DNA of 64,000 nt from NCBI GenBank assembly GCA_043803745.1, contig JAZDJS010000026.1, forward strand, positions 1 to 64,000, written 5' to 3'. The stretch comes from an archaeon. Lineage in GTDB: Archaea > SpSt-1190 > DYHY01. This document shows, piece after piece, positions 33,759-52,859 of the stretch (position 1 is the stretch's first letter; each line of letters begins with the position of its first letter). Under the pieces are notes generated by a model, which saw only the letters and a program-made list of their open reading frames with translations, did not search any database and had not been told where the DNA came from. A program made the translations under genes and the position numbers.

Positions 33759-33817
33759 TGCGCGCAAGTCAAATATGCGAATTCCTTTTAAAACACCCTC
33801 CTTTCCGAACTTGCGAA

Positions 33818-36499: not shown

Positions 36500-36506
36500 A
36501 GAAGCG

Positions 36507-36568
36507 CACTCAATCACTCAACTGAGTGATACCTCAACTGAGTGCTACTGTATTTAATGAATTGAGTG
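36507..36568. promoter_or_regulatory. operator array (CACTCA/TGAGTG half-sites) upstream of the RHH gene and giant-protein operon
   Basis: CACTCAAT 36507; palindrome ATCACTCA-AC-TGAGTGAT 36513-36530; CTCAACTGAGTG 36533-36544; ATTGAGTG 36561. TATA-like tatttaat at 36551 and tttaaaa at 36578. Confidence 0.8.
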
Positions 36569-36608
36569 AGGCAAACCTTTAAAAGGGAGTTTGGCCAAAA
36601 AAGGGCCA

Positions 36609-36797
36609 ATGCGGGCCAGCTTCGACTACGAAGACGTAAAAATGCGCTCGGTTGACGAAATCCTCTTCAACTACAACCGGGACAAGCCGACTTCCCGCAG
36701 AATTTCGAAATCGGAGCTGCTCAGACGGCTCCTGGACCTTGTGTCGAACGGAAAAATACCTCTGGAGAAGGTGGTCATAATTAATGAGAAGAGATAA
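36609..36797 (+). CDS. ribbon-helix-helix (CopG/Arc-like) transcriptional regulator
   Basis: Beta strand RASFDY, helix, then ISKSELLRRLL. ATG 36609 is ~26 nt after the TATA (alternative TTG at 36591). Overlaps the start of the giant gene. Confidence 0.7.
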   Translation: MRASFDYEDVKMRSVDEILFNYNRDKPTSRRISKSELLRRLLDLVSNGKIPLEKVVIINEKR

Positions 36798-39700
36798 CGC
36801 CCTCCTCGCCCTTTCGGTTTTCCTCTTCCTTTTCCTCTTCCTATTCACCGCCTCGTTCGCGGCCAGTCCGAGCTTTTCCCCGTATGTCACTCGGTCAGGC
36901 TTCAGCAATCCCTCGGTGCTTACGACGAACCAGTCCGAGGTTTCAATGACAATCTGGACGGGAACGATTTCAGCAGATGCATTCATAACTAGTGTGGAAA
37001 TAAACATTGCCGGACTGAACCCTGTCGAGGGGCAGGTACTTTCAGTCCCGGAGCCAACTTGCCCTTCGGGAATCTCAACCAGGAACATAATAAACGAGCA
37101 AACACTTCTCTGCTCAACGGGAATGAGCGAATCCGGAATAGCGGGCGGAAGCAACGTCCCTATAACCCTTACGTTGAACCGCGTCAAGGATTCGGTCGGA
37201 ACCAACCCCAACCAGATATCAATCAAGCTGGTCGATGAGCAACTTAACGAAACGACAATGCTGATTGATTTCACCATCCAGAACAAGCCGGCCCTCGCCT
37301 CTTCGGTCGCCGTCGGGTATCCCGCAACCGTCTCGAAGGGGCAGATCGGAGTTCCGGTAACTTTCAGGACGATAAACACCGCAAGTTCCCCGGCGGCAGC
37401 CGCAAACTCTGTTACACAGGATGCAGTGATACGGGATGCGGGAGGCGCGGCAATATCTGCAGTATCTTACACTCAGACCCCCTCCGGGGCAATAAGCCTT
37501 GGCTCCGGGCAGGAGGTCAACTTCACATTCTACGTCGATGTTCCCGTCGGCGCAGCAGCGGGTTTGATGACACACTGGTTCAACCTTTCAGCAGTCGACC
37601 CGAACAGCGGGCGGGTTTTCACGTCGGCAACCGTCCAGAATTCGACAACAGTGCTCACTCCTCCGAACCTTAACGCAACACTCCTCCTCAACAACACCGC
37701 GTTCATCTCCAACATTTATCCGTACAACACAGCCCTCCTTACTGTGCGGCTGAACAACACGGGCGAAGCGCGTGCGAACCTGACCGGAGCGAGCCTGGTC
37801 TTTCTGGATTCCAACGGACTTGACAGGACCGCGAATTTCATTTACGCGAACACGACCCAGCTGAACGCCTCAATCCCGGCAAGCGCAACCACCGACATCT
37901 CATTCAACGTCACGGGAATAGGCAGCTGGGCCGGAGGGGCCGTTACGGTCAACTACACGGTTTATTACGTGGACGGAGGCAGCGGGCTTTCCTGCGGACC
38001 TTACAGGACAAACCACTCGAACGCATTCACCTATGACACGGTCGCCCCTTTGGTGAACTTCCACAGCTATGACGGAAACACTTCAAATTACCGCGACACG
38101 CAGGATGGGACCGCCGCAATTGTCGTCAACGCAACCGACAGTTCCTCGGGGCTCACTCCAAGCGCGCTGGTTCTTTTCACCGCAAAGGACGGCTCAACAG
38201 TCAGGACAACTAACCTTTCCTGCTCCCCGCCATTGTGCAGCGGAACGGTCGACGTTGATGAGCTTTCCCTCGACATATACGGCGACACCCAGACGCGCGT
38301 TGTTGTCTCGGACGCGGTCGGAAACAACGCAACCGCGACGGCGAGCGTCTTCTTCTACAACGTGCGCCTGTTTGCAAAAGACGGGTTCAACAACTATTAC
38401 ATTGAAGAACCCAACTTTACCAATCCGGTATTCGCCCTTTTGAACATGACGAACGGAGAAAGGACGGCCTGCCTTGGGCAGCCTTTCGGCTCTTCCCTCT
38501 GCGCAGTGCCTTTCGGCACGGTCGTCAATGTTTCACTTTCCTCAGTTTCGCACGTTTGGAACCAGTCGGACGGCAACCGGACCCTCTGCATTGGGACCGG
38601 AACGACGACTTCTTGCAACAAGGCCTTTCCGTCATCCGCCCACATTAACGACACTATTTACCTCCTCCCGAACACGCTGATAACCCTTCAAAACGAGTTC
38701 GGAATTCCGGTCAAGGCATTCAACGTAACGGTCCGCGATTCCCTCTCCTGGTTCGTCTACCTTTCCGACGGAGCCGTCGGCGACGAGAATTCCTCGGACG
38801 GCGCCTTGCTTTTCCCCTTCGACACGGGCAAGCATCAGACGCCCTTCACAGCGGAGTTCAACGTTGCGCCCAACTACAACAACACGGGGCTTTCCTTCTG
38901 GACCCAGCAATTCACCCCCTCGAACGCAACCCTTACCACGATTTCGAAAACGTCCAAATTCTCAGTTCTCTTCAACCTTCTTGACGAGTTCGGAAACGCA
39001 ATTGACAGGACGGGGGGTTCGGCAGTATACAACCAACTGAACGAGTTCGGCTTCTCAGCCGTCGCCTGCGTAACGAACCCCGTTGACAACCACGTTTACG
39101 GCTGCAGGATTCCGACGGCTGCCGAGGTTGCGAATGCATCCTACCCCTCCCAGGGAGCGAGCTTTTCAGTTTCAAAGCCCGGCTATGTGGATTTTTCAAC
39201 GGTGCGCGTAGTCCCTCCAACAAGCCCGGCATCGGCGCAGGTAAACGCGACCGCTCGCGCGAACTTCACGATCCTCATAATTCCGACGGATGCATGGAAC
39301 GTCTCGACGATTGACGGGAATTCGATCGATTCAGTCATCAGCGAATTCGCGGGAGCCTGCTACCGGAACGGGACGCAATCCCTCTGGGGCTGCCCCGCAA
39401 CATCAAGCGACACATACGTGAACGTAACTCCTGTGAATTCAAGCGGATTCCTGAATCGCAGGATTCTCATCAACCCCTCCCAGGCCCAGCAGAAAACGAA
39501 CTACTCGGCAAGCAACTACACTCTTGAGGTCAACGCATCCGAGGAGGTTTTCGGCGGACGGCTTCACAGCAACGACATTTCCCAGGTCCTGTTCAACGGC
39601 AGCATCAACTGCATCGGCAAGCCCGCGCCGGCGGACCACACCTGGGGCTGCCCCGTTCCAATAGGGACCGCCCTGTCCCCAGTATATGTCAACACATCCT

Positions 39701-42696
39701 CCCAGAGCGGGTATCTCAGCGCGACGGCATATCCGAGCGGAGTGATAAGTTCGGTCCACGCAACCTCCCCGGCAACCGCGTCAAGCACGCACAATTACAC
39801 CGTCAGAGTCAACACCACAAACCAGTTCGGAAGCACTGTCTCCTCCGCCGGAGGGAACGTCAGCGCATATCTTGCGAACACGACGAGAATCTCCTGCGTG
39901 AACACATCCCTTTCAGACTGGTTCTGCGCAGTGCCGGTCTCCACCGCAGCAACGGTAAGAACGACCCTTCAGGCGTACATTTCCGCAAACAATTCGCTGA
40001 CGGCACCGGCGAATTCCGGGAACCAGTCAAGGATTTCGAGCGGAAACCTTTTCACGGCAGTCGTCTATACGCGGGACGAGCTCGGCAACTTTCCGGACCT
40101 CCGCACCGGCTCCGCGGTCAGCCTTGCCGGATATTCATGTGTCAACAATTCAGTTTCCGCATTCCTCTGGGGCTGCGCAGTTCCGTGGTCAACCTCGGGA
40201 AACGCGACAATTTCCGCCTCCGGGATGATTTCCTGGAATTCCGGACCGTACATCACGAACTCGTATGACGGACCCCAGATCTCAGTCCAACCAACCCTGC
40301 AATACACCTTGCTTGTGAACCTGACCGATCAGATAGGCAATGCCCTTTCGGGGGCGACAGTGACTGCGACCAATTCGGCGGTCAGCTGCTATTCAAACCT
40401 GAGCAGATACTACTGCCCCGTTTCCTCCGCCTCCTCCGCCGTGACGGCTTCGAAAGTCGGGTTTGTCAACAGGACGGTCACTACAGCCGGGATTTCCTCA
40501 GCAGGACCCCAGACGGTCCTCCAAATGACATATGCCAATAATTCCGGATTGCCCTATTCCGCAAGCATCCGGGTTACCCGCGAAGTCAACAACAGCAACA
40601 TTGAGATGTCCCAAGATGTCTCATTCATCAACGCAACGAGCGGGGCGCAGGTCTTCCCGGCGGGAAACTCCTCAAACCCCTCAACCCCCAACATCTTCTA
40701 TTTTGCATTCCCGGAAGGATCCCAGGAACTGTTCGTCCGGAAGGCGGGATATGTCGACAAGCAGGTCTACTTCACAACGAGCCAGGCAACGCCATATGAC
40801 AACTCGAACACTTCGAACAGTTTCTCGCTTCGCATCTACCTTCATTCCGAAAGCGGCGCGGCAATAACGAGCGGCGCCGTCCTTTATCCCTACCAATACC
40901 ACCAGGACGGCTCATACTATTATTTCGCAATCCCTTCCGGAACCGCAACGGTTTACGCCGGAAAGACGGGATATGTCAACAATTCCACAACGGTTTCAAT
41001 AAACACAACCTATCCGCAGGGCCAAGTGCAGGCGCCGCTCAAGCTCCAATTCACGCTGAAGGTCGTTTCAGTTGATTGGGGCGGAGCTTCCCTGAACGGA
41101 ACGACCGTCAACGTAACATATGCCGCCAACAGCTCGCTCCTTGCTTCACAGACCCTTTCCTCGTCCGAGAACACCGCCTATTTCGACCTTTCCCATACGA
41201 CGCCGGCGATAATCGTTTCGGTTTCCAAGGCGAATTACAACACCGTCGGATTCGGCCCCACAGCGCTCTCCCAGTCGAGCCAGGCAAGCATGCAGTCGGC
41301 GCACGCCCAGAACATCATAGTCAATCTGACTGATTGGGGCGGAGCCGCCCTAGGCAGCGCAACGGCAACCCTCTATCGGAACGACTTTTCAACCTCGAAC
41401 AAAATAGCCAAATGCACAACCCTTCCCTCGGGACTGTGCACTTTCACCTCATACAACGGCGTGGCGGATCCCGACACAAGCAGTTTCAATTCATCCAGGG
41501 TTTCCCAGGGCGATTTGATAGTTGTTTCAGCGGACAAACCCGGATTCGGGCAGATACAGACCGCCGATGGCAGGTATTACTACCAGAATTCCTCGACGCC
41601 CCTTCCAGCGGGAACGTTCAAACTCGGAGCGAAAATAACCGTTTTCGCGAACCAGGCATGGGGCTCGGGGAACCCGATAGCCGGGGCAACGATCAGCCTC
41701 AAGAACACTTCGAACGTCCAGATTGCGAGCATCACAACCAATTCAACCGGCGGCGGGGCGTTCAGCCCCAACTATTACGCCTCCAACAGCCCGAGCGATT
41801 CGTCGATAGCTTCAGGGGAGCTCCAGAACCTTGCGAATTATGCCGCATATTTCTCAAAGCTCGGGTATTCCAACCAGACGAACGCATCGACTTTTAATTC
41901 CTCCCTGCCCAAAACCCTGACCTTCACCGGATATGACTCTGCTGCGCCGGTCTTCACGTTCTACTGGCCGGACGGCTCGGTTTATGACGGAATAGAAAGC
42001 TCGCCATACAACGGGAGCGCGATAGGGCTCGAGAACTTCACGGTGAACTTTTCAGTCTCAGACCCGTACGGGACTGACGGCTCGGGCGTTAACCTCAGCA
42101 ACATCACGGTCGGGGTAATCAACTCGACGCAATCATTCCAACTCAAGACACTCAGCTGCCCTTCCGGAAGCTGTTCGACTTCATTCTCCGGAAAGGAATT
42201 CCCCGTCCAGAATCTCACCCTGAGGTTCGGCGCCCTTGACAATTTCGGGAATGGCAACACCTCAGATTCCCTCCTGATCTCAATACCCGCCGTGAACGTG
42301 ACCGGAATCGGTTTCGTTAACGCAAGCGCGTATTCCAACGGTCTTGGCTACTGGAACTTTTCATTCAACCTCGCGCTCAAGGGGGCTTTCGCCCGCATGA
42401 AGCTTTCCGACTTTACGGGACTTGTCGGGGGATATGTCAACATAACCGACCCTTCCTGTGCCGAAAGCCATTGTGCGAACCTGTGGTACTACAACGCAAC
42501 GAGCTGCGCCGCGGAGAGCGTCCCGGTCTACAACGAGTTCAACGCAACCGTCACACCCTACGCCTTCTGCGACAGGAACTTGACGACAACTTACCTGCGT
42601 GAGCAGACTGCCTTCCTCGTGATGACCGTGCCGCCGGGCGCCCAGTCGGACAAATACAACGCAAGCTACGGGTTTGCGGGAGGGGGCTCTTCATAA
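36784..42696 (+). CDS. giant secreted beta-repeat glycoprotein A (1970 aa)
   Basis: Signal peptide, S/T/N-rich, very many N-X-S/T sequons, repeated ~90 aa modules (DE[FL]GN...C..WGCP...GY..), no C-terminal TM. Confidence 0.9.
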   Translation: MRRDNALLALSVFLFLFLFLFTASFAASPSFSPYVTRSGFSNPSVLTTNQSEVSMTIWTGTISADAFITSVEINIAGLNPVEGQVLSVPEPTCPSGISTRNIINEQTLLCSTGMSESGIAGGSNVPITLTLNRVKDSVGTNPNQISIKLVDEQLNETTMLIDFTIQNKPALASSVAVGYPATVSKGQIGVPVTFRTINTASSPAAAANSVTQDAVIRDAGGAAISAVSYTQTPSGAISLGSGQEVNFTFYVDVPVGAAAGLMTHWFNLSAVDPNSGRVFTSATVQNSTTVLTPPNLNATLLLNNTAFISNIYPYNTALLTVRLNNTGEARANLTGASLVFLDSNGLDRTANFIYANTTQLNASIPASATTDISFNVTGIGSWAGGAVTVNYTVYYVDGGSGLSCGPYRTNHSNAFTYDTVAPLVNFHSYDGNTSNYRDTQDGTAAIVVNATDSSSGLTPSALVLFTAKDGSTVRTTNLSCSPPLCSGTVDVDELSLDIYGDTQTRVVVSDAVGNNATATASVFFYNVRLFAKDGFNNYYIEEPNFTNPVFALLNMTNGERTACLGQPFGSSLCAVPFGTVVNVSLSSVSHVWNQSDGNRTLCIGTGTTTSCNKAFPSSAHINDTIYLLPNTLITLQNEFGIPVKAFNVTVRDSLSWFVYLSDGAVGDENSSDGALLFPFDTGKHQTPFTAEFNVAPNYNNTGLSFWTQQFTPSNATLTTISKTSKFSVLFNLLDEFGNAIDRTGGSAVYNQLNEFGFSAVACVTNPVDNHVYGCRIPTAAEVANASYPSQGASFSVSKPGYVDFSTVRVVPPTSPASAQVNATARANFTILIIPTDAWNVSTIDGNSIDSVISEFAGACYRNGTQSLWGCPATSSDTYVNVTPVNSSGFLNRRILINPSQAQQKTNYSASNYTLEVNASEEVFGGRLHSNDISQVLFNGSINCIGKPAPADHTWGCPVPIGTALSPVYVNTSSQSGYLSATAYPSGVISSVHATSPATASSTHNYTVRVNTTNQFGSTVSSAGGNVSAYLANTTRISCVNTSLSDWFCAVPVSTAATVRTTLQAYISANNSLTAPANSGNQSRISSGNLFTAVVYTRDELGNFPDLRTGSAVSLAGYSCVNNSVSAFLWGCAVPWSTSGNATISASGMISWNSGPYITNSYDGPQISVQPTLQYTLLVNLTDQIGNALSGATVTATNSAVSCYSNLSRYYCPVSSASSAVTASKVGFVNRTVTTAGISSAGPQTVLQMTYANNSGLPYSASIRVTREVNNSNIEMSQDVSFINATSGAQVFPAGNSSNPSTPNIFYFAFPEGSQELFVRKAGYVDKQVYFTTSQATPYDNSNTSNSFSLRIYLHSESGAAITSGAVLYPYQYHQDGSYYYFAIPSGTATVYAGKTGYVNNSTTVSINTTYPQGQVQAPLKLQFTLKVVSVDWGGASLNGTTVNVTYAANSSLLASQTLSSSENTAYFDLSHTTPAIIVSVSKANYNTVGFGPTALSQSSQASMQSAHAQNIIVNLTDWGGAALGSATATLYRNDFSTSNKIAKCTTLPSGLCTFTSYNGVADPDTSSFNSSRVSQGDLIVVSADKPGFGQIQTADGRYYYQNSSTPLPAGTFKLGAKITVFANQAWGSGNPIAGATISLKNTSNVQIASITTNSTGGGAFSPNYYASNSPSDSSIASGELQNLANYAAYFSKLGYSNQTNASTFNSSLPKTLTFTGYDSAAPVFTFYWPDGSVYDGIESSPYNGSAIGLENFTVNFSVSDPYGTDGSGVNLSNITVGVINSTQSFQLKTLSCPSGSCSTSFSGKEFPVQNLTLRFGALDNFGNGNTSDSLLISIPAVNVTGIGFVNASAYSNGLGYWNFSFNLALKGAFARMKLSDFTGLVGGYVNITDPSCAESHCANLWYYNATSCAAESVPVYNEFNATVTPYAFCDRNLTTTYLREQTAFLVMTVPPGAQSDKYNASYGFAGGGSS

Positions 42697-45600
42697 TGGC
42701 GAACGGACGCGGAAAGCTCGCTGCCGCCTCGATCACGCTCCTCTACCTGGCGCTCTCACTCGCCTTTTCAATCCCGGTTTTCACGGCCGACCTGAGCCCC
42801 AATGCAGTCAGCACCGGGCAGAACGTCTCTTTCACGCTCGTTGTTTCGAACACCGGGTCTGAGCTAATCGAGAACGTTTCAATCAGCATGAACCCGCTCA
42901 ATTCCGAGGGCAAGATAACCTCCGCCGACTGCGACGCCTCAAGGTTCTCGGGGTCAATAATAACCGGGACAAACCTCAACCTCCTGATATGCCTGCGTCA
43001 GGGGTCAAGCGGGATAAGTACCGGGCAGTCTGCGACAATCCGCTTCAATTTCTCAGCAGCGCCCCTTTCCAAACCAATCCCGAACCCGGTCACAATCTCG
43101 ATCTATGCATACAACACGACCCAGGAATCTGATTTCCGGACTGACGGAGTCGAATTCGAGAACGCCGCTTCCCTCTCAACAACACTTTCCTCGCCGCTTC
43201 CCTCCAGAATTATTGCGGGACAGACCGGAATCTTCGCCAATTTCACCGTGATAAACAACGGGGATGCCACCGCAAGCACGGTCACTCCCGCCGCCTCAAT
43301 AGGCGCGCCCTACGGCTCAATAACCCCGACAGTAATACCGGCGCCGCAGAACATACTGGGCGGGGGCTCCCGCACCTTCGAGGCGAGGTTTGACTTGCCC
43401 TCCGGAGCCGCTTCAAGCTCCCTCACCTTGAATTTCAACGCAACCGGAACGGATGTGAACAGCCTCCTCAATACCACAACGCAAGCAAGCTCGACAGCAA
43501 CGGTTTACCTCCAGCCAAACCTCCAGATATACTCAATAACCCCGAACATCACCTTCGCTTCCGCGAATCCCGGCTACCGGACGGTCAGGCTTTCGGTTCT
43601 CGCCGGCGTGCTTGGTTCGGCTGCAACGATATCTGAAGCGAACATCACCGGGTTCTCGCTGAAAATAGTTTCCGGGAGCGGGGTTGATGAAAGCTCAAGC
43701 TATACCTCTCCGCTAAGAACCGACTCGGTCGTAAGCATTGCAGCAGGGACCAACGCAACGCTGACCTTCGAGCTTTCGATCAACAACCCCGGCGAGGGGC
43801 AGAAATATGCAAACGTTTCGCTCAACTACAACGACGGGATCGCAGGAATCTCCCCGAACCAAACGGCGCTCAACAACGGGACAATCTTCGCGGTTGACAA
43901 CACGAACCCGACAATCAACATAGTCTCGGCAACCTCGGATTCGGGCGCGGGGTTCTTCAGGCAGGGCGAGACGATAACGGTAAGCTCGACGGTCACGGAC
44001 GCCCTTTCAGGAATAGGCTCTCCGAGCTGCTCGGTTTCCATCGGAGGAATAAGCGCCGGAACCCTCAGCTTTACCTCGAACTCCTGCAACGGAACCGTGC
44101 AGATACCGCAGGACTCTTCGATCTACGGAAGCGAAATCCTCTCAATATCGACCTCCGACGCCGTCGGCAATCTTGGGACGGGAACACTGACAGTGCAAAT
44201 CTACACCCTTGCCGTAAACACAACCGACATTCTGACGGGAGCGGACATAAAGGACGGGTCAGACCTTTCCAACGCAACAGTTTACGCCACCAACTCATCG
44301 GGAGGGCAGACCTTCTCGTGCACGCCACTTTACGGGACAAAGACCCACCTTTGCGGGGTCCCTCTCGGAACCGTTGTCAACATCTCCGCAACCTCCCCGG
44401 CATACGTTCGCAGCAATAACACGACGGATTCCTCCAGGATTTGCGTCGGAACCGGAACCCTTTCCTCCTGCGCGGGAGCGCTCCCTTCCGGGGGATTTGC
44501 GCAGATAACAATATCCCTCACGCCAAACACAAAGATAACCGTCCTCAACGAGTTCAACCGGACGATCCTTTACGGCAACGTCACTGTCGGGGATTCTGCG
44601 GCAACCCCGTGGTACAAATCATTCATGGACGGCGGCGCATATGACCACAACACGACAATCAACGGCATAATTGTCGCGCCAATTGACACCGGAAAGCACA
44701 CGAGCCCGTTCCAGGTAAGGTTCAATCTGGACGCCTCGATGAACCCCGGATATCTTGCCGCGACAAATTCGAACTACGTCCCGTCGCAGGAAAATCAGAC
44801 CAACCTGACTATAACCGCGAGGTTCACAATATTTGTCCGGCTTTTCACGGAATTCGGGGCCCCGCTGAACACAACGACCGGAACGGTTTCATTCAGCCAC
44901 TCGAGCGGAACATTCCCCTGCATCCAGAATCCGGCGAACTACTCGGAATACGGCTGTCTTGTGCCGACCCTTACCGAGAACCCGGGGCTTTCCTCCGGCG
45001 GGAACATAACGATAACCAAGCCCGGATATGTGACCAAGCGAATACAAGGGGCTGTCCCTCCGGCAAACCCCAGCGCAGCCCAGGTTCAGGCGTCAGAATT
45101 GCTCCAGTTCGACCTTGCGGTAAGGGTCACCGACGAGTTCGGCCTGGCAAACCTTACAACGTCCGAGGTCTCAAGAGTTTCCCTTATTTCGAGCAATTGC
45201 ACGTACGGGAGCGGCGGCTTCTGGGGCTGCCCGGCGGTTTCCGGCGACGAAATCGGAATAACCGTGGAGCCGCTTTCATCGAGCGGATATCTCGTGAAGA
45301 CAAGCCAGATAATCCCGTTCGTCGATTATGTCCAGTCTTCCGTCGTAATCCCCCTGAAATACTCCCTGAAAATATTCGCAAGGGACGAGCTTGGGAACTA
45401 TCTCAACGCAACGAACATTTCCGAGATAAAGTTCCTTTTCGGTTCCGGAGTATCCTGCACGAGGAACGGGAACACTTCGGAATGGGGCTGCCCCGTTTCG
45501 GCGGGAACCGCAGCAGCCCCGGTCCACGTTAACGCATCCTCTTCGAGCGGACGCCTGAACTACGTCATAGCAGCCCAGGCGATTCCCGCAAACACCTCAG

Positions 45601-48600
45601 AGTCCCAGCTCGTGAATTATTCGGCGAACAACTTCACGATACGGGTCCTGCCGGCTTCGGAGATGGGAACTGAACTTCCGCTTTCGGGCCTTTACGTCAG
45701 CTGGGGCGGGCAGAACGCATGCATCCAGTCCGGCTCATACTGGTATTGCCCGGCGAACGCAAGCATTGCAACGAACGTTTCATCTGGCGCTGTCGGATTC
45801 ATAAACTACCTGAACTCCTCGGTCAATTCCCCCGCGCTTTCCGGAAGCCAGCTGCTTGTGACAACCGCCAACAAATATTCCATCCTTGTCAACACGCTTG
45901 ACGAGTTCGGCACGCCAAGGAACTTTTCATCCGGAAGGGTCTCGTTTGGAAGCGTTTCCTGCGTTTCTTCGGCGGGAAGGCCCTACGAATGGGGCTGCCC
46001 CTCGCCAGCCGGAACGCTTTCCCAGGCGAACGTTTCCCATCCCGGATATATCAACTTCACAAGTCCGGCTTCCTATACCGCCCCGGAGCAAACCGCGGCA
46101 CAGGTCGTGATTAACTCCGCCAACAAATTCACGCTCAGGGCGAACATCTACGACGAGCTTGGACAGGAGCTCCCTTCCGCGCAAGTTTCGTCCGGTTCGG
46201 TAGACTGCTATTTGATTGGCGGCCAGCCGGTCAACAGCTATTTCTGCCCCCTTGTTCCGCCCCAGGCAAGCCTCACAATTTCGAAAACCGGCTTCGTTTC
46301 CTCGACAGTGCAAATCTCCAGCCTCAACTACACCGAACAGCAGGTAATCACAATCAACAGCTCATCGACAAGCCCGAAGTATTCTGCCGTCCTGACAATC
46401 CGGAGGTCGCCCTCAAGCAACGACGAAACGGAAATGACCAGCGCGACGTTCTTCAATCTCACCAATTCAGCGTCAATCCCATATTCGCAGAGAGTCCAGA
46501 ACAGATATTATTTCGCCCTTGCCGAAGGGAGCGCTTCCTTGATTATACGGCACCAGAGCACCTACGTTGACAGGGCCTACAACTTCACAACCTCTTCCGT
46601 TGCCCAGCACGTTGGGGAGCCGGTTCTGGATTATCCGCTCAAGGCAATAGTTATTGCCGAGGATGGCGCCGGGATAGAGGGAGCGACCCTTGCCCTGAAC
46701 GTTTCCGGAACTTTCATCGAGTCGAACACAATTTCCGAATACTATTCCTCCCTTGCCAACGGCGCTTATTCCGTATATGCCTCAAAAGTCGGATTCGTAA
46801 CGTCCTCTCCCCAGGCGTTCAGCATAAACACGACATATCCCGCCAACCAGACAACGGTCCAGGTTTCTCTCAAATACACCCTCAAGGTCGTTTCGAACGA
46901 CTGGGGGGGCGCGCCCCTGAACGGGACGACAATTTCGGTTACGGGCCAAAGCATCCTGACCAATCCGGAGTCCTTGAACACCGCGTATTTCCCGGTCAAT
47001 CCCGCGACAAGCCCGGTGGTCAACGTCACCGTTTCGAAGACAGGCTACAACACCGTTGCGTTCGTTTCGGTGCCAATTTCCGCATCTTCGCAGAACGTGA
47101 CAACGACAAGCCACGCCCAGAATATAATTGCCCAGGTGCAGAATTGGGCGGGCAGCCCCCTTTCGGATGCCGTCCTCCGGCTCCACTCCAACGGAGCGGA
47201 GGTCGCCGACTGCGTCACGACCGCGAGCGGAACGTGCACTTTCGTTTCGACAAACGGAATCTCCACAACCGGGAACTTCAACTCCTCAGAGATGCCCCCC
47301 GGAGCAAGCGTAAGCTTTTCAGCTGAAAAACCGGACTATTGGAACGCACGTTCCGGCAATTACACCTATGCTGCGCAGAATTCGTCGCCCCCCCAAAGCC
47401 TTGGCGCGCTGAGGATAGGAATACCTCCGAAGGTTCTTGTTGTGAAGGGCTGGAACACCAGCCTGCCTGTCGATGATGCGGCGGTCGTCCTCAATGCGGG
47501 CTCAACCCAAATCTCCTCAAACTCAACGGATTCCGGCGGATATGCGATCTTCCTCCCCAATTATTCCGCAGCTTCGTCGGGATCCGACTTCTTCATTTCC
47601 GGCGCCGAAGCGTCGTCCGGCGCGAACCTTTCCGCCCAGGGGTCGAAAACCGGATATTCTGGGAACATCACGAGCTTCAGTTTCAGCCCCGACACGAACT
47701 CAACAATCGTTCTCGTGCTTTCCGACAGCGTTCCGCCCCAGCTCGAGCTGAACCTTTCCGGACGGGACGGCACCGCCTTCGTGGGCTTTGAGAACTTCAA
47801 CGTCTCCCTCTTCTCCGACGAGCTTTATCCGCAGGATTCGTCAGGAGTGAACTATTCCGGCTCAAGCTACAGGATTTCCTGGGCGAACGGCACTATTGCC
47901 AGGGGCTCGGCGAGCCTGTCCTCCTGCTCCGGATACTGGTGCAACCTGACCGAGATAAACGGCTGGGACCTTCCGGTCGGCAGCCTTTATGTTGTCGTCA
48001 ACGTCACGGACGGGCAGGGCAACTGGAATTCGACAAACATCTCCTTCGTCTCGGCTCCGGGCCTTAACGAAACGTTCGTCACAATTGAGAAAAGCACCGC
48101 TTCCTCGGCAGGAGACGACTTCTTCCTCGTGACATGGGGCCTCGTTGTCAAGGGAACCCAAGGGAAGCTGCGCGCCTCAAACCTCTATCCGGTGAACTGC
48201 TCAAGTTCGTGCGCGGAATTCCCGATTCAAGGATGGGCAAATCTCGTTTATACGGATGTCGCAAGCTGCTACGGAACGGCGAGATATTCCGTTGTCAAGA
48301 ACACGTTCCCGGCAGGGCAGACGCCCGCAACATTCTGCGACTATGATTTCTCGACCCAGTATGCCCGGGAACAGAACGTTTCCCTGAAGATTATTGTGCC
48401 GACCGGGCTTGCCAATGCAAGATATAACGCGAGCTACTATTGGACCGCCCTGCAGCAGGACCTTCCAAGAGCGAACGTTTCGGTGAGTTCGGTAACCTCG
48501 TCCAATTCAAGCCCCGAAACCGGGACGAACTTCACCGTGACGGTCCGGGTTTACGATGATGCGAACGGCGGGACTGCGGACGACATACTTGTTTCGCTGA

Positions 48601-50012
48601 ACTCGACAATCGGCTCCGTTGTTTATCCGGCGAACCAGACGATTTCCCAGATTTACAGCGGCCAGTACGGGGAAGCGAACTTCACCGTAATGGGCTCGCC
48701 TACAACGCTTGGAACCGAAACCCTTACGGCGAGGATTCACTCCGGTCTTGACGCGAACTCCGGATGGCCAGCGACAATCTCGGTTGCGACGGCAAGCACG
48801 GCGGTTGTCATCGTAGACCTGACGGCGCCCTTCGTAATCCAGGGAACAAGCCCGCTCAGCAACTACAACTACTCTTCCCCGACAGTCCAATTCGACACTT
48901 TCGCTTTCGACAACTTCCGCTTGAACTACACTGCCGTCTACGGCAACTGGTCCGGCGGCTGGGGCGCGAAATCTCTGAACTCGACCCCGCTCAACAACAC
49001 CTGGTGGAACCAGACAATCGCGATTTCTGATGGAATCTATCTCTGGGGTCTCTTTGCAAATGACACCTCGGGCAACTGGAACCTGACTGCCAACAGAACC
49101 TTCACAGTCGACACTGTCGCACCTTCTTCAGTAATTTCAGCTCCAGTGAACACAACCAACACGACAGATTCAACCCCGACAATCACAGGAACCGCCTCTG
49201 ACGCGACCTCCGGAGTGAGAAGGGTCTGGCTCAGCTCAGACGGTTCGACCTGGAACCTTGCGACGGGAACGACCGCCTGGACCTACACTTTCGGCACCCT
49301 GTCAGAAGGAATCCACGTTATCGAATCAAAAGCTGAAGACTGGGCAGGGAACAACCAGTCAGCCTTCGGAGAAGTCTACATAACAATCGACACGGTTGCG
49401 CCCTTCGTAATCCAGGGAACCAACCCGCTTGACACCTTCAACTCCTCTTTAGCATCGGTTACTTTCGATCTCATGGGAATTGACAATCTCTTCCTGCATT
49501 CGCTTGCCGTCTACGGCAACTGGTCCGGCGGCTGGGGCGCGAAATCTCTGAACTCGACCCCGCTCAACAACACCTGGTGGAACTCGACTCTTTCCCTCCC
49601 CGACGGCTACTTTGTCTGGGGCGCATATGCGAACGATTCCTCCGGAAACGGCAACTTTTCCTCAGCCAACAGGACGCTTTTGGTTGACACGACCGCGCCT
49701 TCGTATGGCGCCTCGCTCGGCCAGAACACGACTGAGATAAACGTTTCCCTCGGCGAGGTTGCGCTCCTGTACTCGTACTGGTCTGATGCGCTTGCCGGAC
49801 TTGCCGGCTCAATCCTCTCAACGAACGAGACCGGCGCGTTCGCAAACTACACGTCAATTGCCCTTTCCGGAAGCGGAGCCTGGTCCAACTTCACCTGGAC
49901 GAACACGACAGCTCTTGCGAATGGCACGGCTGTCGCCTGGAGAATCTGGGCGAACGACACCCTAGGGAACTGGAACTTGACAACTGAAACGATAATAACA
50001 GTGATAACTTAA
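42696..50012 (+). CDS. giant secreted beta-repeat glycoprotein B (2438 aa), paralog of A with extra Ig-like C-terminal modules
   Basis: Colinear with A (e.g. DTGKH, CVGTGT, TLKVVS.DWGGA.LNGTT, HAQNII); extra DTxAP Ig-like repeats; TAATG translational coupling. Confidence 0.9.
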   Translation: MANGRGKLAAASITLLYLALSLAFSIPVFTADLSPNAVSTGQNVSFTLVVSNTGSELIENVSISMNPLNSEGKITSADCDASRFSGSIITGTNLNLLICLRQGSSGISTGQSATIRFNFSAAPLSKPIPNPVTISIYAYNTTQESDFRTDGVEFENAASLSTTLSSPLPSRIIAGQTGIFANFTVINNGDATASTVTPAASIGAPYGSITPTVIPAPQNILGGGSRTFEARFDLPSGAASSSLTLNFNATGTDVNSLLNTTTQASSTATVYLQPNLQIYSITPNITFASANPGYRTVRLSVLAGVLGSAATISEANITGFSLKIVSGSGVDESSSYTSPLRTDSVVSIAAGTNATLTFELSINNPGEGQKYANVSLNYNDGIAGISPNQTALNNGTIFAVDNTNPTINIVSATSDSGAGFFRQGETITVSSTVTDALSGIGSPSCSVSIGGISAGTLSFTSNSCNGTVQIPQDSSIYGSEILSISTSDAVGNLGTGTLTVQIYTLAVNTTDILTGADIKDGSDLSNATVYATNSSGGQTFSCTPLYGTKTHLCGVPLGTVVNISATSPAYVRSNNTTDSSRICVGTGTLSSCAGALPSGGFAQITISLTPNTKITVLNEFNRTILYGNVTVGDSAATPWYKSFMDGGAYDHNTTINGIIVAPIDTGKHTSPFQVRFNLDASMNPGYLAATNSNYVPSQENQTNLTITARFTIFVRLFTEFGAPLNTTTGTVSFSHSSGTFPCIQNPANYSEYGCLVPTLTENPGLSSGGNITITKPGYVTKRIQGAVPPANPSAAQVQASELLQFDLAVRVTDEFGLANLTTSEVSRVSLISSNCTYGSGGFWGCPAVSGDEIGITVEPLSSSGYLVKTSQIIPFVDYVQSSVVIPLKYSLKIFARDELGNYLNATNISEIKFLFGSGVSCTRNGNTSEWGCPVSAGTAAAPVHVNASSSSGRLNYVIAAQAIPANTSESQLVNYSANNFTIRVLPASEMGTELPLSGLYVSWGGQNACIQSGSYWYCPANASIATNVSSGAVGFINYLNSSVNSPALSGSQLLVTTANKYSILVNTLDEFGTPRNFSSGRVSFGSVSCVSSAGRPYEWGCPSPAGTLSQANVSHPGYINFTSPASYTAPEQTAAQVVINSANKFTLRANIYDELGQELPSAQVSSGSVDCYLIGGQPVNSYFCPLVPPQASLTISKTGFVSSTVQISSLNYTEQQVITINSSSTSPKYSAVLTIRRSPSSNDETEMTSATFFNLTNSASIPYSQRVQNRYYFALAEGSASLIIRHQSTYVDRAYNFTTSSVAQHVGEPVLDYPLKAIVIAEDGAGIEGATLALNVSGTFIESNTISEYYSSLANGAYSVYASKVGFVTSSPQAFSINTTYPANQTTVQVSLKYTLKVVSNDWGGAPLNGTTISVTGQSILTNPESLNTAYFPVNPATSPVVNVTVSKTGYNTVAFVSVPISASSQNVTTTSHAQNIIAQVQNWAGSPLSDAVLRLHSNGAEVADCVTTASGTCTFVSTNGISTTGNFNSSEMPPGASVSFSAEKPDYWNARSGNYTYAAQNSSPPQSLGALRIGIPPKVLVVKGWNTSLPVDDAAVVLNAGSTQISSNSTDSGGYAIFLPNYSAASSGSDFFISGAEASSGANLSAQGSKTGYSGNITSFSFSPDTNSTIVLVLSDSVPPQLELNLSGRDGTAFVGFENFNVSLFSDELYPQDSSGVNYSGSSYRISWANGTIARGSASLSSCSGYWCNLTEINGWDLPVGSLYVVVNVTDGQGNWNSTNISFVSAPGLNETFVTIEKSTASSAGDDFFLVTWGLVVKGTQGKLRASNLYPVNCSSSCAEFPIQGWANLVYTDVASCYGTARYSVVKNTFPAGQTPATFCDYDFSTQYAREQNVSLKIIVPTGLANARYNASYYWTALQQDLPRANVSVSSVTSSNSSPETGTNFTVTVRVYDDANGGTADDILVSLNSTIGSVVYPANQTISQIYSGQYGEANFTVMGSPTTLGTETLTARIHSGLDANSGWPATISVATASTAVVIVDLTAPFVIQGTSPLSNYNYSSPTVQFDTFAFDNFRLNYTAVYGNWSGGWGAKSLNSTPLNNTWWNQTIAISDGIYLWGLFANDTSGNWNLTANRTFTVDTVAPSSVISAPVNTTNTTDSTPTITGTASDATSGVRRVWLSSDGSTWNLATGTTAWTYTFGTLSEGIHVIESKAEDWAGNNQSAFGEVYITIDTVAPFVIQGTNPLDTFNSSLASVTFDLMGIDNLFLHSLAVYGNWSGGWGAKSLNSTPLNNTWWNSTLSLPDGYFVWGAYANDSSGNGNFSSANRTLLVDTTAPSYGASLGQNTTEINVSLGEVALLYSYWSDALAGLAGSILSTNETGAFANYTSIALSGSGAWSNFTWTNTTALANGTAVAWRIWANDTLGNWNLTTETIITVIT
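48932..49583 (+). repeat. identical 79-bp direct repeat (48932-49010 and 49505-49583) inside giant gene B
   Basis: tgccgtctacggcaactggtccggcggctggggcgcgaaatctctgaactcgaccccgctcaacaacacctggtggaac occurs twice at offset 573; a 23-bp identical block (48825/49398) has the same offset. Confidence 0.92.
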
Positions 50013-50028
50013 AAAGGAAAGGAGAAAA

Positions 50029-51738
50029 ATGGAAAAGAGGGAAATGGGGATTAAGATTGCCGCGGCAGGGATTCTTGCAATTCTCCTGCTTGTTGCGCTC
50101 CCCCTCGTCCTCGCGGACACGCCCTTCCCGGGATATTTCGAGGTGATTCCCTCCTGCCTTTCGACTCTCACCTGCGGTCAGGGACCGAACATAACAGTCA
50201 ATGGAACGGGGATAGTCAACCTCCTTGCCGCTCCAGCCAACGGCGCTGCCGACGGGCTTGTCACCGGAGTTCCAGTCAACGTGACCTGGGAAACCACGAC
50301 GGACGGCTCAAGCCCTTACCCGATGAATTCCTCAGTCTGGAGAGCCAACTCATCAGGACATTTCCTTCTCGGGAGCAACGCAACTGTTTCTGCAAGCCAC
50401 AGGGTGCAGATAGGGCCCTTCGAATATTCCGAGGCATACTGCCCCTCGGCAGGCTGCGAGATTCGCCTCGTCGTTTCCAGCTGCAACGCAACGAGCGGAA
50501 TGTGCATAAACTCCTCGGCTGACAACTCAACATTCTCAATTGTCGTAGCGCCGTCCCTCTACAATTTCTCCTACCTGCCGGCAAGCCCGAAGACAGGGGA
50601 TCTCGTAACGCTCAGCTGGAACACATATTCGGCAATGAACCATTCGGCGACCTGGACCGGCGGTTCCGCGGCAAACGCAAGCTATCTGACGGGGCATTCC
50701 GTCCAGGCAGGCTATTTCAACTATTCCGAAAATCCGGTCTTCTCAATCAGGTCCTGCTCCTCGGGAAGCCAGTGCGAGCTGAAGAACCAGCAGGTCAACA
50801 TAAGCCTAAGCACTGCCGGACTTGCCCTCTCGTCAACTTCGCCGAGCACGGCAATCACCGCAAGCTGGACAACCCACAACTCATCGAACGGCACACTCTT
50901 CTTCTCGGTTAACGGAGGCGCAGTGCAGAACTCAACCGACGGCAGCTTTTCAACGGGCCATTCGGCAGCTTTGGGAAGCTTCGCAGCAGGGGATTCCATA
51001 ACCTACTATGCCCGGAGCTGCCTCCTTCCGAACAACTGCGAGACAACCGCGAACGCGACAGCGACAATCTCGGCAACTTTGACGACAACAATCCCGCCAG
51101 CAACTACGACAGTTTCCACCGGCGGAGGGGGAAGCGGCGGATTCTTCGGGGGGACGGTCACGACAATACCCGCAGTTGCAATTCCCGCGGGCTCAGAATA
51201 CGCCTATAGGGCCCTCCCTGCCGGGCTTCCGGCAAGCTTCGCAGTCAACGGCACGTCCCAGGCAATAATCCTCGTCACTTTCACGCACAGCCAATATGTT
51301 CCCAACGCGACAATCGTTCTTCAGCGGGTGCTTTCATTCTCCGGAACACGCCCCCCGGGAGCCGTTTACCAGTATGTCAACCTCACCCACTATTACGTCG
51401 ACGAGTCGAAATTGGTTCTCCCCGTCAAGATAGAATTCAGAGTGTCCAAGCAATGGGTCGCTGACAGCAACATTGACCGCGCGACAATTTCCCTCTACCG
51501 GCTGTCCGGAGGAAGCTGGCAGGCTCTCGAAACGGTCCATTCGGGGGAAGACGCCCAATACTACTACTTCAAGTCGAATTCTCCGGGGCTTTCCCTTTTC
51601 GCAATAACCGGGCTTTCAAGGACCGCTTTCTGGGATCTCATAAACCTAATCGAGGTCTATTACGCGGGAGACCCCTCGGTGGACTTTTGGAAGGTCCTTG
51701 ATGCCCTGACCGCATATTACTCTTCGGGAGGAAACTGA
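50029..51738 (+). CDS. secreted FN3-like + PGF-pre-PGF domain protein with duplicated-helix (dockerin-like) tail
   Basis: Signal peptide; W.T....H repeats; Thr/Gly linker; VYQYVN..IEFRVSKQWV..SLYR..W..L.T..SPGLSLFAITG; tail FWDLINLIEVYY..DFWKVLDALTAYY. Confidence 0.85.
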   Translation: MEKREMGIKIAAAGILAILLLVALPLVLADTPFPGYFEVIPSCLSTLTCGQGPNITVNGTGIVNLLAAPANGAADGLVTGVPVNVTWETTTDGSSPYPMNSSVWRANSSGHFLLGSNATVSASHRVQIGPFEYSEAYCPSAGCEIRLVVSSCNATSGMCINSSADNSTFSIVVAPSLYNFSYLPASPKTGDLVTLSWNTYSAMNHSATWTGGSAANASYLTGHSVQAGYFNYSENPVFSIRSCSSGSQCELKNQQVNISLSTAGLALSSTSPSTAITASWTTHNSSNGTLFFSVNGGAVQNSTDGSFSTGHSAALGSFAAGDSITYYARSCLLPNNCETTANATATISATLTTTIPPATTTVSTGGGGSGGFFGGTVTTIPAVAIPAGSEYAYRALPAGLPASFAVNGTSQAIILVTFTHSQYVPNATIVLQRVLSFSGTRPPGAVYQYVNLTHYYVDESKLVLPVKIEFRVSKQWVADSNIDRATISLYRLSGGSWQALETVHSGEDAQYYYFKSNSPGLSLFAITGLSRTAFWDLINLIEVYYAGDPSVDFWKVLDALTAYYSSGGN

Positions 51739-51739
51739 A

Positions 51740-52777
51740 ATGAAGATGAGAAAACGACATGCAAGCTACCAGCATCTTGCCGCGGCAATCATTTTCCTTC
51801 TTGCGCTGGTGGTCGGTGTCGCATCCGCAGCAACGAGCGTTTCCTTCGAATTCACAGGTCCCGATGGGATCCTTCCCGGAAAAACCGGCGCCTACCGCGC
51901 GACAATCTCGCCAAACGAGGCAGTTTCGGGATTCGACTTGGCGGTCCTTGTGCCTTCCGGATGGAGCATAGATTCCTGGTCCGCTTCCGGATATTCCCGC
52001 AGCGCAATAACGCTCGACACGCGAAGCAGGTCCTACAGGGGGTTGCCTTATACGGCATACCACTGGAAATTCGCGAACGCCCTTTCCGCCGGGGAGAACA
52101 TTTCATTCTCGTTGAACGTCAAAGTTCCGGAAACCGAAGCTATTGGGACCCGGAAGGAAATCTCCGCAATCTGGACCAACCCGAGCGGATTCGGCACAGA
52201 GAACAGGAACGTCAGCATCGCAAGCGCCTCAATTCTGTGCGGCGACGGCGCCTGCTCGTCAGGGGAAACTTGTTCAACCTGCCCGAAGGACTGCGGAGTC
52301 TGCTGGACGCCAGTATGCGGCGACGGCGCCTGCTCCCCCGGAGAAGTCTCCTGCCAGGCCGACTGCGGGAATGGAAACACTCCGGTTAACACACCGACGA
52401 CGGCAGGAAACTCAGGAAGCATCTTCGGAACCTTCGAAGGCAGCAGGAATTATCTGCTCTACGGAGGCTTGATTGTCCTTGTGCTTGCCCTGATAATGGT
52501 CGCGATATATGTTGTCAGGAAGGTTTCCGGGAGGCCGCGGGCGTTGGAACCGAGCCAGCCAATCCCCCTCGAGGAATACAATCGCGCCCAGGAGGCGGGC
52601 TCGCCCCTGCGCGACCAGGTTTCCGGGCGCTTTGACGTAAGACCGGTGAACCGGCAGCTTGAGAGGGCAACCGTCACGCCAAGGGAAATCGACACGACCG
52701 AGAAGAAAATCGTCCTTCTGAAAAAGGCAATGATGCGGATAAACAAGGTAATGGACGACCTTGGGAAAAACCTTTGA
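51740..52777 (+). CDS. membrane-anchored protein: cohesin/Ig-like domain, CGDGxC Cys repeats, TM, cytoplasmic coiled coil
   Basis: Signal peptide; PG...Y.ATISP..AVSGFDL...VPSGW; CGDGACSSGETCSTCPKDC-type repeat x2; TM LLYGGLIVLVLALIMVAIYVV. Confidence 0.8.
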   Translation: MKMRKRHASYQHLAAAIIFLLALVVGVASAATSVSFEFTGPDGILPGKTGAYRATISPNEAVSGFDLAVLVPSGWSIDSWSASGYSRSAITLDTRSRSYRGLPYTAYHWKFANALSAGENISFSLNVKVPETEAIGTRKEISAIWTNPSGFGTENRNVSIASASILCGDGACSSGETCSTCPKDCGVCWTPVCGDGACSPGEVSCQADCGNGNTPVNTPTTAGNSGSIFGTFEGSRNYLLYGGLIVLVLALIMVAIYVVRKVSGRPRALEPSQPIPLEEYNRAQEAGSPLRDQVSGRFDVRPVNRQLERATVTPREIDTTEKKIVLLKKAMMRINKVMDDLGKNL

Positions 52778-52859
52778 GGCGGAAAACCGATATTTATCGG
52801 CTACTAAAAACTTATAAAGGGGAAAATGTCGGATATTAAAACTTTTTGGTGGCTGAAAA

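Follow-up and report, generated by a model that had tools for sequence, protein, structure and literature searches.

A candidate tail-receptor docking pair in an archaeal operon for two giant surface glycoproteins

Introduction

Archaeal surface proteins are known to be anchored by C-terminal transmembrane (TM) helices, by archaeosortase-dependent lipid attachment, or by stalk proteins of the surface layer (S-layer). The PGF-pre-PGF domain normally precedes the PGF-CTERM sorting signal, which comprises a PGF-like motif, a TM helix and a basic cluster. In the Sulfolobales, SlaA and SlaB are an anchor-less outer glycoprotein and a membrane-anchored stalk that are co-transcribed. The subject here is an operon of five genes, g1, A, B, g4 and g5, in the first 64,000 nucleotides of contig JAZDJS010000026.1 (assembly GCA_043803745.1, archaeal lineage SpSt-1190), a stretch called the window throughout. 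In this operon the PGF-pre-PGF protein g4 ends in a short helical tail that appears, from complex prediction, conservation and cross-phylum synteny, to dock on the ectodomain of the membrane protein g5.

Two further systems bear on the surfaces of archaea with small genomes. The SPEARE proteins of Nanohaloarchaeum antarcticus are said to be giant surface proteins of a DPANN archaeon that carry enzymatic and adhesion domains, and a part in cell-cell contact has reportedly been proposed for them. The Micrarchaeota S-layer protein SLP_Mh is a glycosylated protein of about 101 kDa with PF05123/TIGR01564 domains, and its authors raise the idea of a second, stalk-like anchoring protein (10.1101/2021.04.28.441871).

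The source assembly comprises 1.23 Mb in 51 contigs and is 90% complete; the window is its contig C26, which also codes for the archaeal markers TFB, Trm1, ABCE1, FtsZ and ribosomal protein L11. The operon amounts to 16 kb, about 1.3% of the 1.23-Mb assembly. This genome is labelled G000; G001 belongs to the same genus, G003 to another genus, and G002 (84% complete) to the same family.

The adaptor g4 and its tail

The product of g4 consists of a signal peptide, FN3-like repeats with Cys pairs, a G/T-rich linker, a PGF-pre-PGF domain and a two-helix tail (Table 1). An initial annotation of the window had called it a PGF-pre-PGF protein, and rightly so: its TIGR04213 score is 88.2 bits (E 5e-25), with 28 as the cut-off, and 91.6 bits when the whole genome is searched. 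The four PGF-pre-PGF paralogs in the genome end in a Thr/Pro-rich linker, a TM helix and basic residues, whereas g4 alone runs on from the domain with ...RTAFWDLINLIEVYYAGDPSVDFWKVLDALTAYY... and then stops, so that a tail takes the place of linker and TM helix. The tail motif occurs once in the genome, and the tail is the most conserved part of g4 (mean identity 0.84), with the N-terminal domain (residues 41-100) at 0.75-0.78.

No PGF motif, C-terminal hydrophobic segment or basic tail is present in g4, and no PGF-CTERM model matches it (E<=0.1, 0.05). Pfam gives no match to residues 385-569 (E<=0.01) or to the whole protein (E<=0.1), dockerin PF00404 included, and neither Pfam nor NCBIfam holds a model for the tail. 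The segment between the two helices reads AGDPSVD, with no DxDxDG-type Ca-binding or EF-hand-like loop. A sortase signal was considered for the tail and ruled out, the tail being amphipathic and devoid of a TM helix; also ruled out was the splitting of a TM-anchored ancestor into g4 and g5, since g5 has its own signal peptide and ectodomain.

The genome does code for a 197-residue exosortase/archaeosortase-family protein at C15:49590-50180 (-), which scores 44 bits with TIGR04178 (cut-off 23); archaeosortase B/ArtE is the closest subfamily, and no subfamily threshold is reached. The enzyme may act on the four TM-anchored PGF-pre-PGF paralogs.

The anchor g5 and predicted docking

A signal peptide, a conserved ectodomain, two CGDGxC spacers, a TM helix and a cytoplasmic tail make up g5. 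The CGDGxC motif is common among surface proteins of the phylum. By hydropathy, g5 is the sole membrane anchor of the operon, and A, B and g4 lack a C-terminal TM helix or sorting signal, in agreement with the initial annotation. Modelled by AlphaFold2 (AF2) from a 6-row alignment, the ectodomain is a 9-strand sandwich with a predicted local distance difference test score (pLDDT) of 89.1 and a predicted template-modelling score (pTM) of 0.81. Its top fold neighbours are Gram-positive pilin domains, at Z 13-14.6 (9lj6_A, Z 14.6, root-mean-square deviation (rmsd) 2.5, 127 aligned); dockerin-bound cohesins score Z 11.2-12.6 (4uyp_A, Z 12.6, rmsd 2.6, 123 aligned of 144), and the Archaeoglobus cohesin 2xdh_A scores Z 11.5. 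Foldseek places integrin calf/thigh domains first (E 9e-7) and lists the cohesin-like module 2jh2_C at E 2.8e-5 (TM-score by query, TMq, 0.50), and for the Atlas model of residues 30-166 DUF11 clusters are nearest (TM-score by query 0.74-0.81). In Pfam there is no match at E<=10, including cohesin PF00963 and DUF11 PF01345. The predicted fold is compatible with a cohesin-like receptor and does not single cohesin out.

The complex was predicted from g5 residues 30-232 and g4 residues 385-569, with custom 3-row alignments and three controls. The median interaction prediction score from aligned errors (ipSAE) was 0.78 (runs 0.76, 0.78 and 0.85), and the best of the three controls gave 0.00; 58 of 80 solved complexes attain the ipSAE mark used, as do 2 of 110 mismatched pairs, a calibration that is only a rough guide with 3-row alignments. 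At least 90% of contacts are shared between runs, and partner pLDDT is at least 86. Both tail helices (residues 537-565) and part of the PGF-pre-PGF domain are predicted to lie on g5 residues 63-68, 93-110 and 144-153, segments that include the family-invariant FDxA, RSRSYxGxxYxAYHWK and WxxPxxF. Of the 27 interface positions in g5, 14 are invariant, compared with 16 of the remaining 109 (p 1.2e-4); for g4 the figures are 20 of 29 and 64 of 156 (p 0.008). This enrichment supports g4-g5 binding without demonstrating it. A dedicated membrane anchor had been postulated for the operon; for g4, this idea now finds support in the controlled complex prediction and in the cross-phylum adjacency and co-variation described below.

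The g5 ectodomain has a 195-residue paralog, encoded at C50:14632-15219 (-), which bears a signal peptide and a C-terminal TM helix of its own. It is kept in G001 and G003 and has no tail-bearing neighbour.

Tail-receptor pairs in other archaea

An exhaustive phmmer search with g4 residues 385-569 against 1.84 billion representatives gave 4680 matches (E<=0.001). Among the top 150, at least 24 align through the tail to their own C-terminus, so the tail-receptor module is not a one-genome curiosity. The tail variants among these matches read FW or TAF..IID.IR.FY, have two repeats and are borne by proteins of 148 to 2049 residues. The PGF-pre-PGF domain is present in 94 of 301 sampled archaeal genomes, and a true tail was found there only in the three relatives and in G179, a member of a distant phylum; the apparent tails of G131, G265 and G189 proved false on inspection, the proteins being TM-anchored. 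In G179 the tail gene is followed by one for 229 residues with a signal peptide and a TM helix, homologous to g5 (hhalign probability 97.6%, E 4.8e-12, 140 columns).

A census of the phylum of G179 was made with a tail-only model (A8) over 401 sampled genomes. Tails were found in 13 genomes, at 14 places, and 8 of these genomes are among 10 of one family. A g5-like gene comes next on the same strand at 13 of these 14 places (hidden Markov model (HMM) E 1e-8 to 5e-24), coding for 191-243 residues with a signal peptide and a C-terminal TM helix, at gaps of -14 to +18 nucleotides (nt). The g5 cytoplasmic tail is absent from these shorter proteins.

Tails and receptors also vary together. FW tails, found in three genomes of the present lineage and in L066 of the other phylum, pair with receptors bearing FD[LV], [YF][HR]W[KN] and W-T.P..GFG, and TAF tails pair with receptors bearing LFTLEDD, NRHGWSF and FD.S-GQSR; judged by these motifs, tail type co-varies with receptor type, across phyla.

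The tail of the other phylum sits directly on cargo proteins of up to 2459 residues. In its family f88 (L054, L058-L063) a four-gene layout recurs, in which a large secreted protein of 1144-1437 residues is followed by a tail protein of about 380-416 residues and a g5-like anchor of about 210-229 residues; several f88 loci have another large protein after the anchor, in some with a C-terminal TM helix. At 7 f88 loci the gene immediately before that of the tail protein codes for a large protein with no clear C-terminal TM helix, an arrangement like that of A and B. The f88 layout represents another type of operon organized around this pair.

The giant glycoproteins A and B

As the initial annotation held, A (1970 residues) and B (2438 residues) are colinear paralogs, with 31% identity across 2018 aligned columns; among the open frames of the genome they rank third and fifth in length. 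Each has an N-terminal signal-peptide-like segment and no other segment of TM grade by hydropathy, and with no C-terminal hydrophobic segment neither has a PGF-CTERM signal. Their richness in N-glycosylation sequons is also real. The counts of 87 in A, 109 in B and 21 in g4 compare with means of 38, 46 and 7 and maxima of 57, 64 and 15 in 1000 shuffles; for A and B this is about 2.3-fold over composition, with 0 of 1000 shuffles reaching the observed counts, and the two sequons of g5 are at chance level.

Both proteins had been described as made of modules of about 90 residues with a Cys pair. The module itself is real, with only the central part of each protein composed of it and a Cys pair (C..[WY]xC) in just six modules of each. 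An iterated HMM finds the module, of about 70-90 residues (typically about 85), in 10 copies in A, 9 in B and 10-11 in orthologs. The N-terminal 500 or so residues and the C-terminal 400-900 consist of other immunoglobulin (Ig)-like domains, with weak DUF11/DUF7507, Big_3_3 and bMG3 signals at the ends. An extra C-terminal extension of about 500 residues in B is also Ig-like (Big_13-type, strong in the G001 ortholog at 75 bits); such domains are shared with other surface genes of the genome, and the central modules are unique to A and B.

The module, which the initial annotation did not recognize, can be tentatively assigned to a class. Modelled by AF2 from a 58-module alignment, one B module is a small beta-sandwich (pLDDT 85.5). 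In Foldseek this model gives nothing at E<=0.001, and the module profile finds only chance-level immunoglobulin matches in the PDB (E>=0.12). A wide structural search reaches a top Z of 6.0 (3e8v_A, rmsd 1.9, 60 aligned), and the transthyretin-like domain of carboxypeptidase D (Z 5.5-5.7), the MG domains of alpha-2-macroglobulin (Z 5.2-5.3) and SlaB (Z 5.5) are all tied in the generic range. PF13620 matches 6 of 58 single modules at E<=0.1; against its gathering score of 32.3 bits A (17.6) and B (16.8) fall below and the A ortholog of G001 (37.9) lies above. Because this ortholog passes PF13620, six modules touch it and the fold neighbours are generic, the module is placed, provisionally, as a divergent member of the common CarboxypepD_reg/transthyretin-like 7-strand sandwich class with an added disulfide loop, and not as a new fold.

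Some further features of these proteins may be recorded. The C-terminus of A (42610-42693) is conserved in orthologs as ...FCD.N..T.Y.[RK]E....L.V.VP.....SD.YN.[ST]YGF.GG, followed by the stop, and may be an interface or a processing site. Within the B extension, at about 48800-49700 (about residues 2040-2340), two long near-identical stretches (...AVYGNWSGGWGAKSLNSTPLNNTWWN...) suggest that a pair of Ig-like domains was recently duplicated within the protein; relatives of the duplicated domains occur in surface genes on contigs C2, C36, C30 and C51. Elsewhere about 15 long frames (C36 from 45147 (+), and on other contigs), one of 3831 residues, carry 3.6-6.8 sequons per 100 residues, the median for frames of at least 400 residues being 0.34; the 1.23-Mb genome is a heavy investor in glycosylated surface proteins.

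Operon layout, promoter and g1

The five + strand genes span 36609-52777, between Maf and TFB, and are as tightly coupled as had been claimed, every junction being an overlap or a gap of at most 16 nt. The g1/A overlap is 14 nt and the A/B overlap 1 nt (TAATG); B and g4 are separated by 16 nt containing a GGAG-type ribosome-binding site, and g4 and g5 by 1 nt. On the + strand of 36400-53000 there is a single TTTAWAW box (36578) and a single internal T5 run (39192), which together with the tight junctions fits one putative transcription unit of about 16.2 kb. A search for RNA sequencing runs turned up none. A short palindrome, CCGATATTTATCGG (52787-52800), lies 10 nt past the g5 stop and may mark the end of the transcript; a TATA-like CTTATAAAGG follows ahead of TFB.

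Table 1. Features of the operon and its flanks (window positions; aa, amino acids)
Feature	Position	Strand	Description
Maf	35891-36499		Upstream flank of operon
Promoter/operator region	36507-36590	+	Palindromes, half-sites, TATA-like box
Palindrome half-sites	36507 and 36561		
Palindrome CACTCAACTGAGTG	36515-36528		Upstream of TATA-like box
Second palindrome copy CTCAACTGAGTG	36533-36544		
TATA-like TTTAAAAG	36579		
g1	36609-36797	+	62 aa from ATG; 68 aa from TTG 36591; putative DNA-binding autoregulator
A	36784-42696	+	1970-aa secreted glycoprotein; signal peptide, 87 sequons, no C-terminal TM helix
A module array	38935-41457	+	aa 718-1558; 10 tandem beta-sandwich modules, 6 with Cys pair
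B	42696-50012	+	2438-aa A paralog; signal peptide, 109 sequons
B main module array	44796-47060	+	aa 701-1455; one more copy at aa 498-574
g4	50029-51738	+	569-aa secreted adaptor (putative); signal peptide
g4 PGF-pre-PGF domain	51208-51612	+	aa 394-528; TIGR04213
g4 docking tail (predicted)	51613-51735	+	aa 529-569; two repeats, FWDLINLIEVYY and FWKVLDALTAYY
g5	51740-52777	+	345-aa bitopic membrane anchor
g5 ectodomain	51827-52234	+	aa 30-165; 9-strand beta-sandwich, predicted g4-tail receptor
g5 cysteine-rich spacers	52238-52366	+	aa 167-209; two CGDGxC...C..DC
g5 TM helix	52442-52534	+	about aa 235-265; hydropathy scan
g5 cytoplasmic tail	52535-52774	+	About 80 aa; ends in conserved helix TTEKKI.LLKKAM.RI..IMDDLGK
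TFB	52860-53789		Downstream flank of operon

The repeats read as an operator array ahead of the operon are indeed there, as clustered palindromes and half-sites before g1. Exact CTCAACTGAG has two copies in the window, at 36517 and 36533, and none elsewhere in it; with one mismatch allowed, CTCAAYTGAG is no more frequent there than chance would give (13 copies, 7.5 +/- 3.8 being expected), so that only the exact copies cluster. Genome-wide there are nine CTCAAYTGAG-type sites, and two adjacent copies with extended arms stand at the operon promoter only. The TTTAAAAGG box, about 27 nt 5' of the g1 ATG, is kept before the orthologous genes in G001 and G003, as are the adjacent TGAGTGAG half-site and several CTCAAyT half-sites. 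The shortness of the interval between the TATA-like box and this ATG suggests a leaderless or near-leaderless mRNA.

The product of g1 is a basic protein, 80-82% identical in G001 and G003 and thus far more conserved than the structural genes, with a homolog in G002. Its pattern of a short strand, a helix and an S-K-S-E-L-L-R helix has a ribbon-helix-helix (RHH)-like look. Its naming as an RHH regulator in the initial annotation was not upheld: Pfam has no match even at E<=10, the sole NCBIfam match is RelB/DinJ, far below cut-off (16.1 bits against 96, E 0.01), and the atlas search gives leads only, all under 0.9. The profile search of the PDB found only the rotavirus NSP4 coiled-coil, a likeness dismissed as chance (E>=0.066). 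As no family supports RHH, g1 is called a putative DNA-binding autoregulator of no established family; the promoter palindromes are probably its binding sites.

A gene upstream of the operon (31713-33767, -) codes for a 685-residue protein with a transglutaminase-like core (PF01841, E 4e-29) and is syntenic in G001 and G003; a connection with surface-protein cross-linking is only a thought.

Conservation within the family

The cluster lies whole between maf and tfb, in the same order, in G001 and G003, so the proposal of one co-regulated, linked unit holds in the sense of a conserved unit, its gene order kept in the relatives examined. In this cluster-wide comparison, identities to G001/G003 are 82/85% for g1, 50/37% for A, 50/42% for B, 65/50% for g4 and 41/38% for g5, with TFB at 97/95%. 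In G002 an A/B-like gene comes after g1 and is truncated where the contig stops, and the cluster adjoins ABCE1 instead of Maf; the cluster is thus carried by 4 of 4 genomes of the family, the G002 copy being partial. A metagenome contig repeats the order A(part)-B-g4-g5-TFB-like.

A search with A gave full-length A/B matches in 3 of 41 genomes, all of one family, missing G002 despite its partial gene, and nothing in 37 further genomes outside the family. A word-indexed protein search returned 4 A-type and 6 full-length g5-type proteins, counts that are too low, as BLAST and HMM searches gave 13 g5-like genes in the other phylum. In a search of the genome contigs for related loci with g4, the only return was one unrelated PGF-pre-PGF locus.

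A proposed surface assembly and its alternatives

The arrangement that we regard as probable, without great confidence, is an accessory surface assembly separate from the S-layer, in which the operon is controlled by g1, the g4 tail is docked on g5, and A and B are held via g4. Transcription would start from a single promoter, whose palindromic repeats g1 probably binds, giving autoregulation. A and B would be exported by way of their Sec signal peptides, be heavily N-glycosylated and form long strings of beta-sandwich domains. The adaptor g4 would carry, in a tail of about 40-45 residues, two amphipathic helices where its paralogs have a membrane helix; by docking non-covalently on the g5 beta-sandwich ectodomain, this tail would hold g4 at the membrane, which g5 is predicted to cross once, ending in the conserved cytoplasmic tail. 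Tail and receptor would constitute a conserved two-gene module, present also in a distant archaeal phylum. Retention of A and B at the surface through g4, and a role of the assembly in adhesion, are suggested by operon membership. The fibre form, host attachment and symbiotic life put forward in the initial annotation are conjectures. Retention is also suggested by a g4 N-terminal domain as conserved as the tail, which points to a second interface at residues 41-100, and by the f88 parallel of large proteins upstream of the tail gene.

A broader reading, put forward tentatively as a fair way short of established, joins these elements. The g4 tail and g5 ectodomain would be a widespread, undescribed docking system, with a double-helix tag of about 45 residues after a PGF-pre-PGF domain, a bitopic receptor encoded directly downstream, and co-evolving specificity classes. 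As an independent analog of cohesin-dockerin, it would here tether a two-paralog giant glycoprotein appendage and link it to the cell interior via the receptor's cytoplasmic tail.

Several observations weigh against parts of this picture. A and B carry no tail, and no copy of their central modules is found next to the tail-receptor pairs of the other phylum; for these reasons A and B may have some other mode of anchoring or release. Of the 14 tail proteins, one (260 residues, G561) lacks an adjacent g5-like gene, adjacent genes in related genomes are non-independent samples, and the co-variation is given without a statistic. The ipSAE is the model's own confidence, drawn from 3-row alignments, and the DNA-binding role of g1 is backed by no family in Pfam, the PDB profile search or the atlas.

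The alternative that survives best, unlikely as we judge it, is that the operon merely co-regulates independent surface proteins: g4 and g5 would be a self-contained pair, and A and B would be shed or held otherwise, by glycan contacts, the S-layer or an uncleaved signal anchor. In its favour are the lineage-specific modules and the absence of a tail from A and B; the direct fusion of tail to cargo of up to 2459 residues in the other phylum implies that separate tail-less cargo is not required. Set against this are the preservation of the A-B-g4-g5 order and tight coupling at 37-65% identity, the conservation of the g4 N-terminal domain close to that of the tail (0.75-0.78 against 0.84), suggestive of a second interface, and the large proteins with no clear C-terminal TM helix just upstream of the tail gene at 7 f88 loci.

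It is improbable that the S-layer, or a second, outer lattice, is built of A and B on a g4/g5 stalk, in the manner of SlaB for SlaA in the Sulfolobales. The idea draws on the size, secretion, heavy glycosylation and missing anchors of A and B, encoded beside a membrane-anchored partner, and on a weak fold likeness between the module and a SlaB beta-sandwich (8qox_B, Z 5.5, rmsd 2.4, 63 aligned), a Z within the generic range. The canonical S-layer gene is, however, on another contig: C19:9553-11751 (-) codes for a 733-residue Methanococcales-type candidate with a signal peptide and 6 sequons, with N- and C-terminal TIGR01564 matches over cut-off (the genome's TIGR01564 matches lie on C19 and C18). 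The type is found in 17 of 17 genomes of the phylum (E<=0.001), in 14 over cut-off, and measures 932-955 residues in genomes of 3.6-3.8 Mb. A, B, g4 and g5 match no S-layer family (PF05123, TIGR01564), an outcome that fails to refute the initial proposal on this count, and full-length A/B occur in only 3 of 41 genomes, one family, plus the partial G002 copy. A and B were accordingly rejected as the S-layer, and with the canonical gene elsewhere in all 17 genomes of the phylum the operon is probably an accessory, lineage-specific surface structure.

A cellulosome-like scaffold displaying enzymes or substrate-binding proteins for nutrient capture is very improbable, for all the cohesin-dockerin-like logic of docking and the alignment of the g5 ectodomain with cohesins (Z 11.2-12.6), as searches of Pfam and NCBIfam recognize no family of enzymes or binding proteins among the five products, and one tail-bearing protein with one receptor and one weak paralog provides no alternative cargo set.

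If true, a tag encoded beside its receptor would give archaea a further way of anchoring surface proteins, modular and non-covalent, and the pair could serve as a display tool in archaea. The operon also offers concrete candidate proteins for cell-cell contact in small-genome, possibly host-dependent archaea.

Comparison with known systems

A parallel in logic is cohesin-dockerin. As there, a short C-terminal two-fold helix repeat is predicted to lie on one face of an anchor beta-sandwich of about 140 residues, and the g5 ectodomain model aligns over nearly the whole cohesin length (4uyp_A, and 2xdh_A, a non-cellulosomal cohesin of Archaeoglobus fulgidus). Unlike that system, g4 and g5 have no cohesin or dockerin sequence match, the tail lacks Ca-binding DxDxDG loops, pilin domains outscore cohesins as fold neighbours of g5 (Z 13-14.6), and g5 is a single-copy bitopic receptor encoded right after its ligand, not a multi-cohesin scaffoldin. 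With PGF-CTERM/archaeosortase A the locus shares the PGF-pre-PGF domain of g4, and the genome has a TIGR04178-family gene; the helical tail of g4 differs in that anchoring would be non-covalent, via a protein receptor and not a lipid.

Likeness to SPEARE proteins lies in the very large, secreted, multi-domain products of a small genome; A and B differ as pure beta-sandwich strings with a dedicated adaptor and anchor. SLP_Mh is likewise a glycosylated surface protein of a small-genome archaeon, and its counterpart here is the 733-residue C19 gene, not A or B. A literature search found no description of the tail-receptor module; the term PGF-pre-PGF appeared only incidentally, and the DPANN, dockerin and cohesin literature held nothing relevant.

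SlaA/SlaB offers a parallel in layout, large anchor-less glycoproteins and a separate bitopic anchor being encoded in one operon; no sequence relation was found, the S-layer gene here lies elsewhere, and there are four structural genes, including an adaptor. Overall the operon is specific to its lineage and belongs to a generally familiar kind of surface-protein cluster, and the tail-receptor module within it seems to be undescribed, following the known logic of cohesin-dockerin and SlaA/SlaB with new parts.

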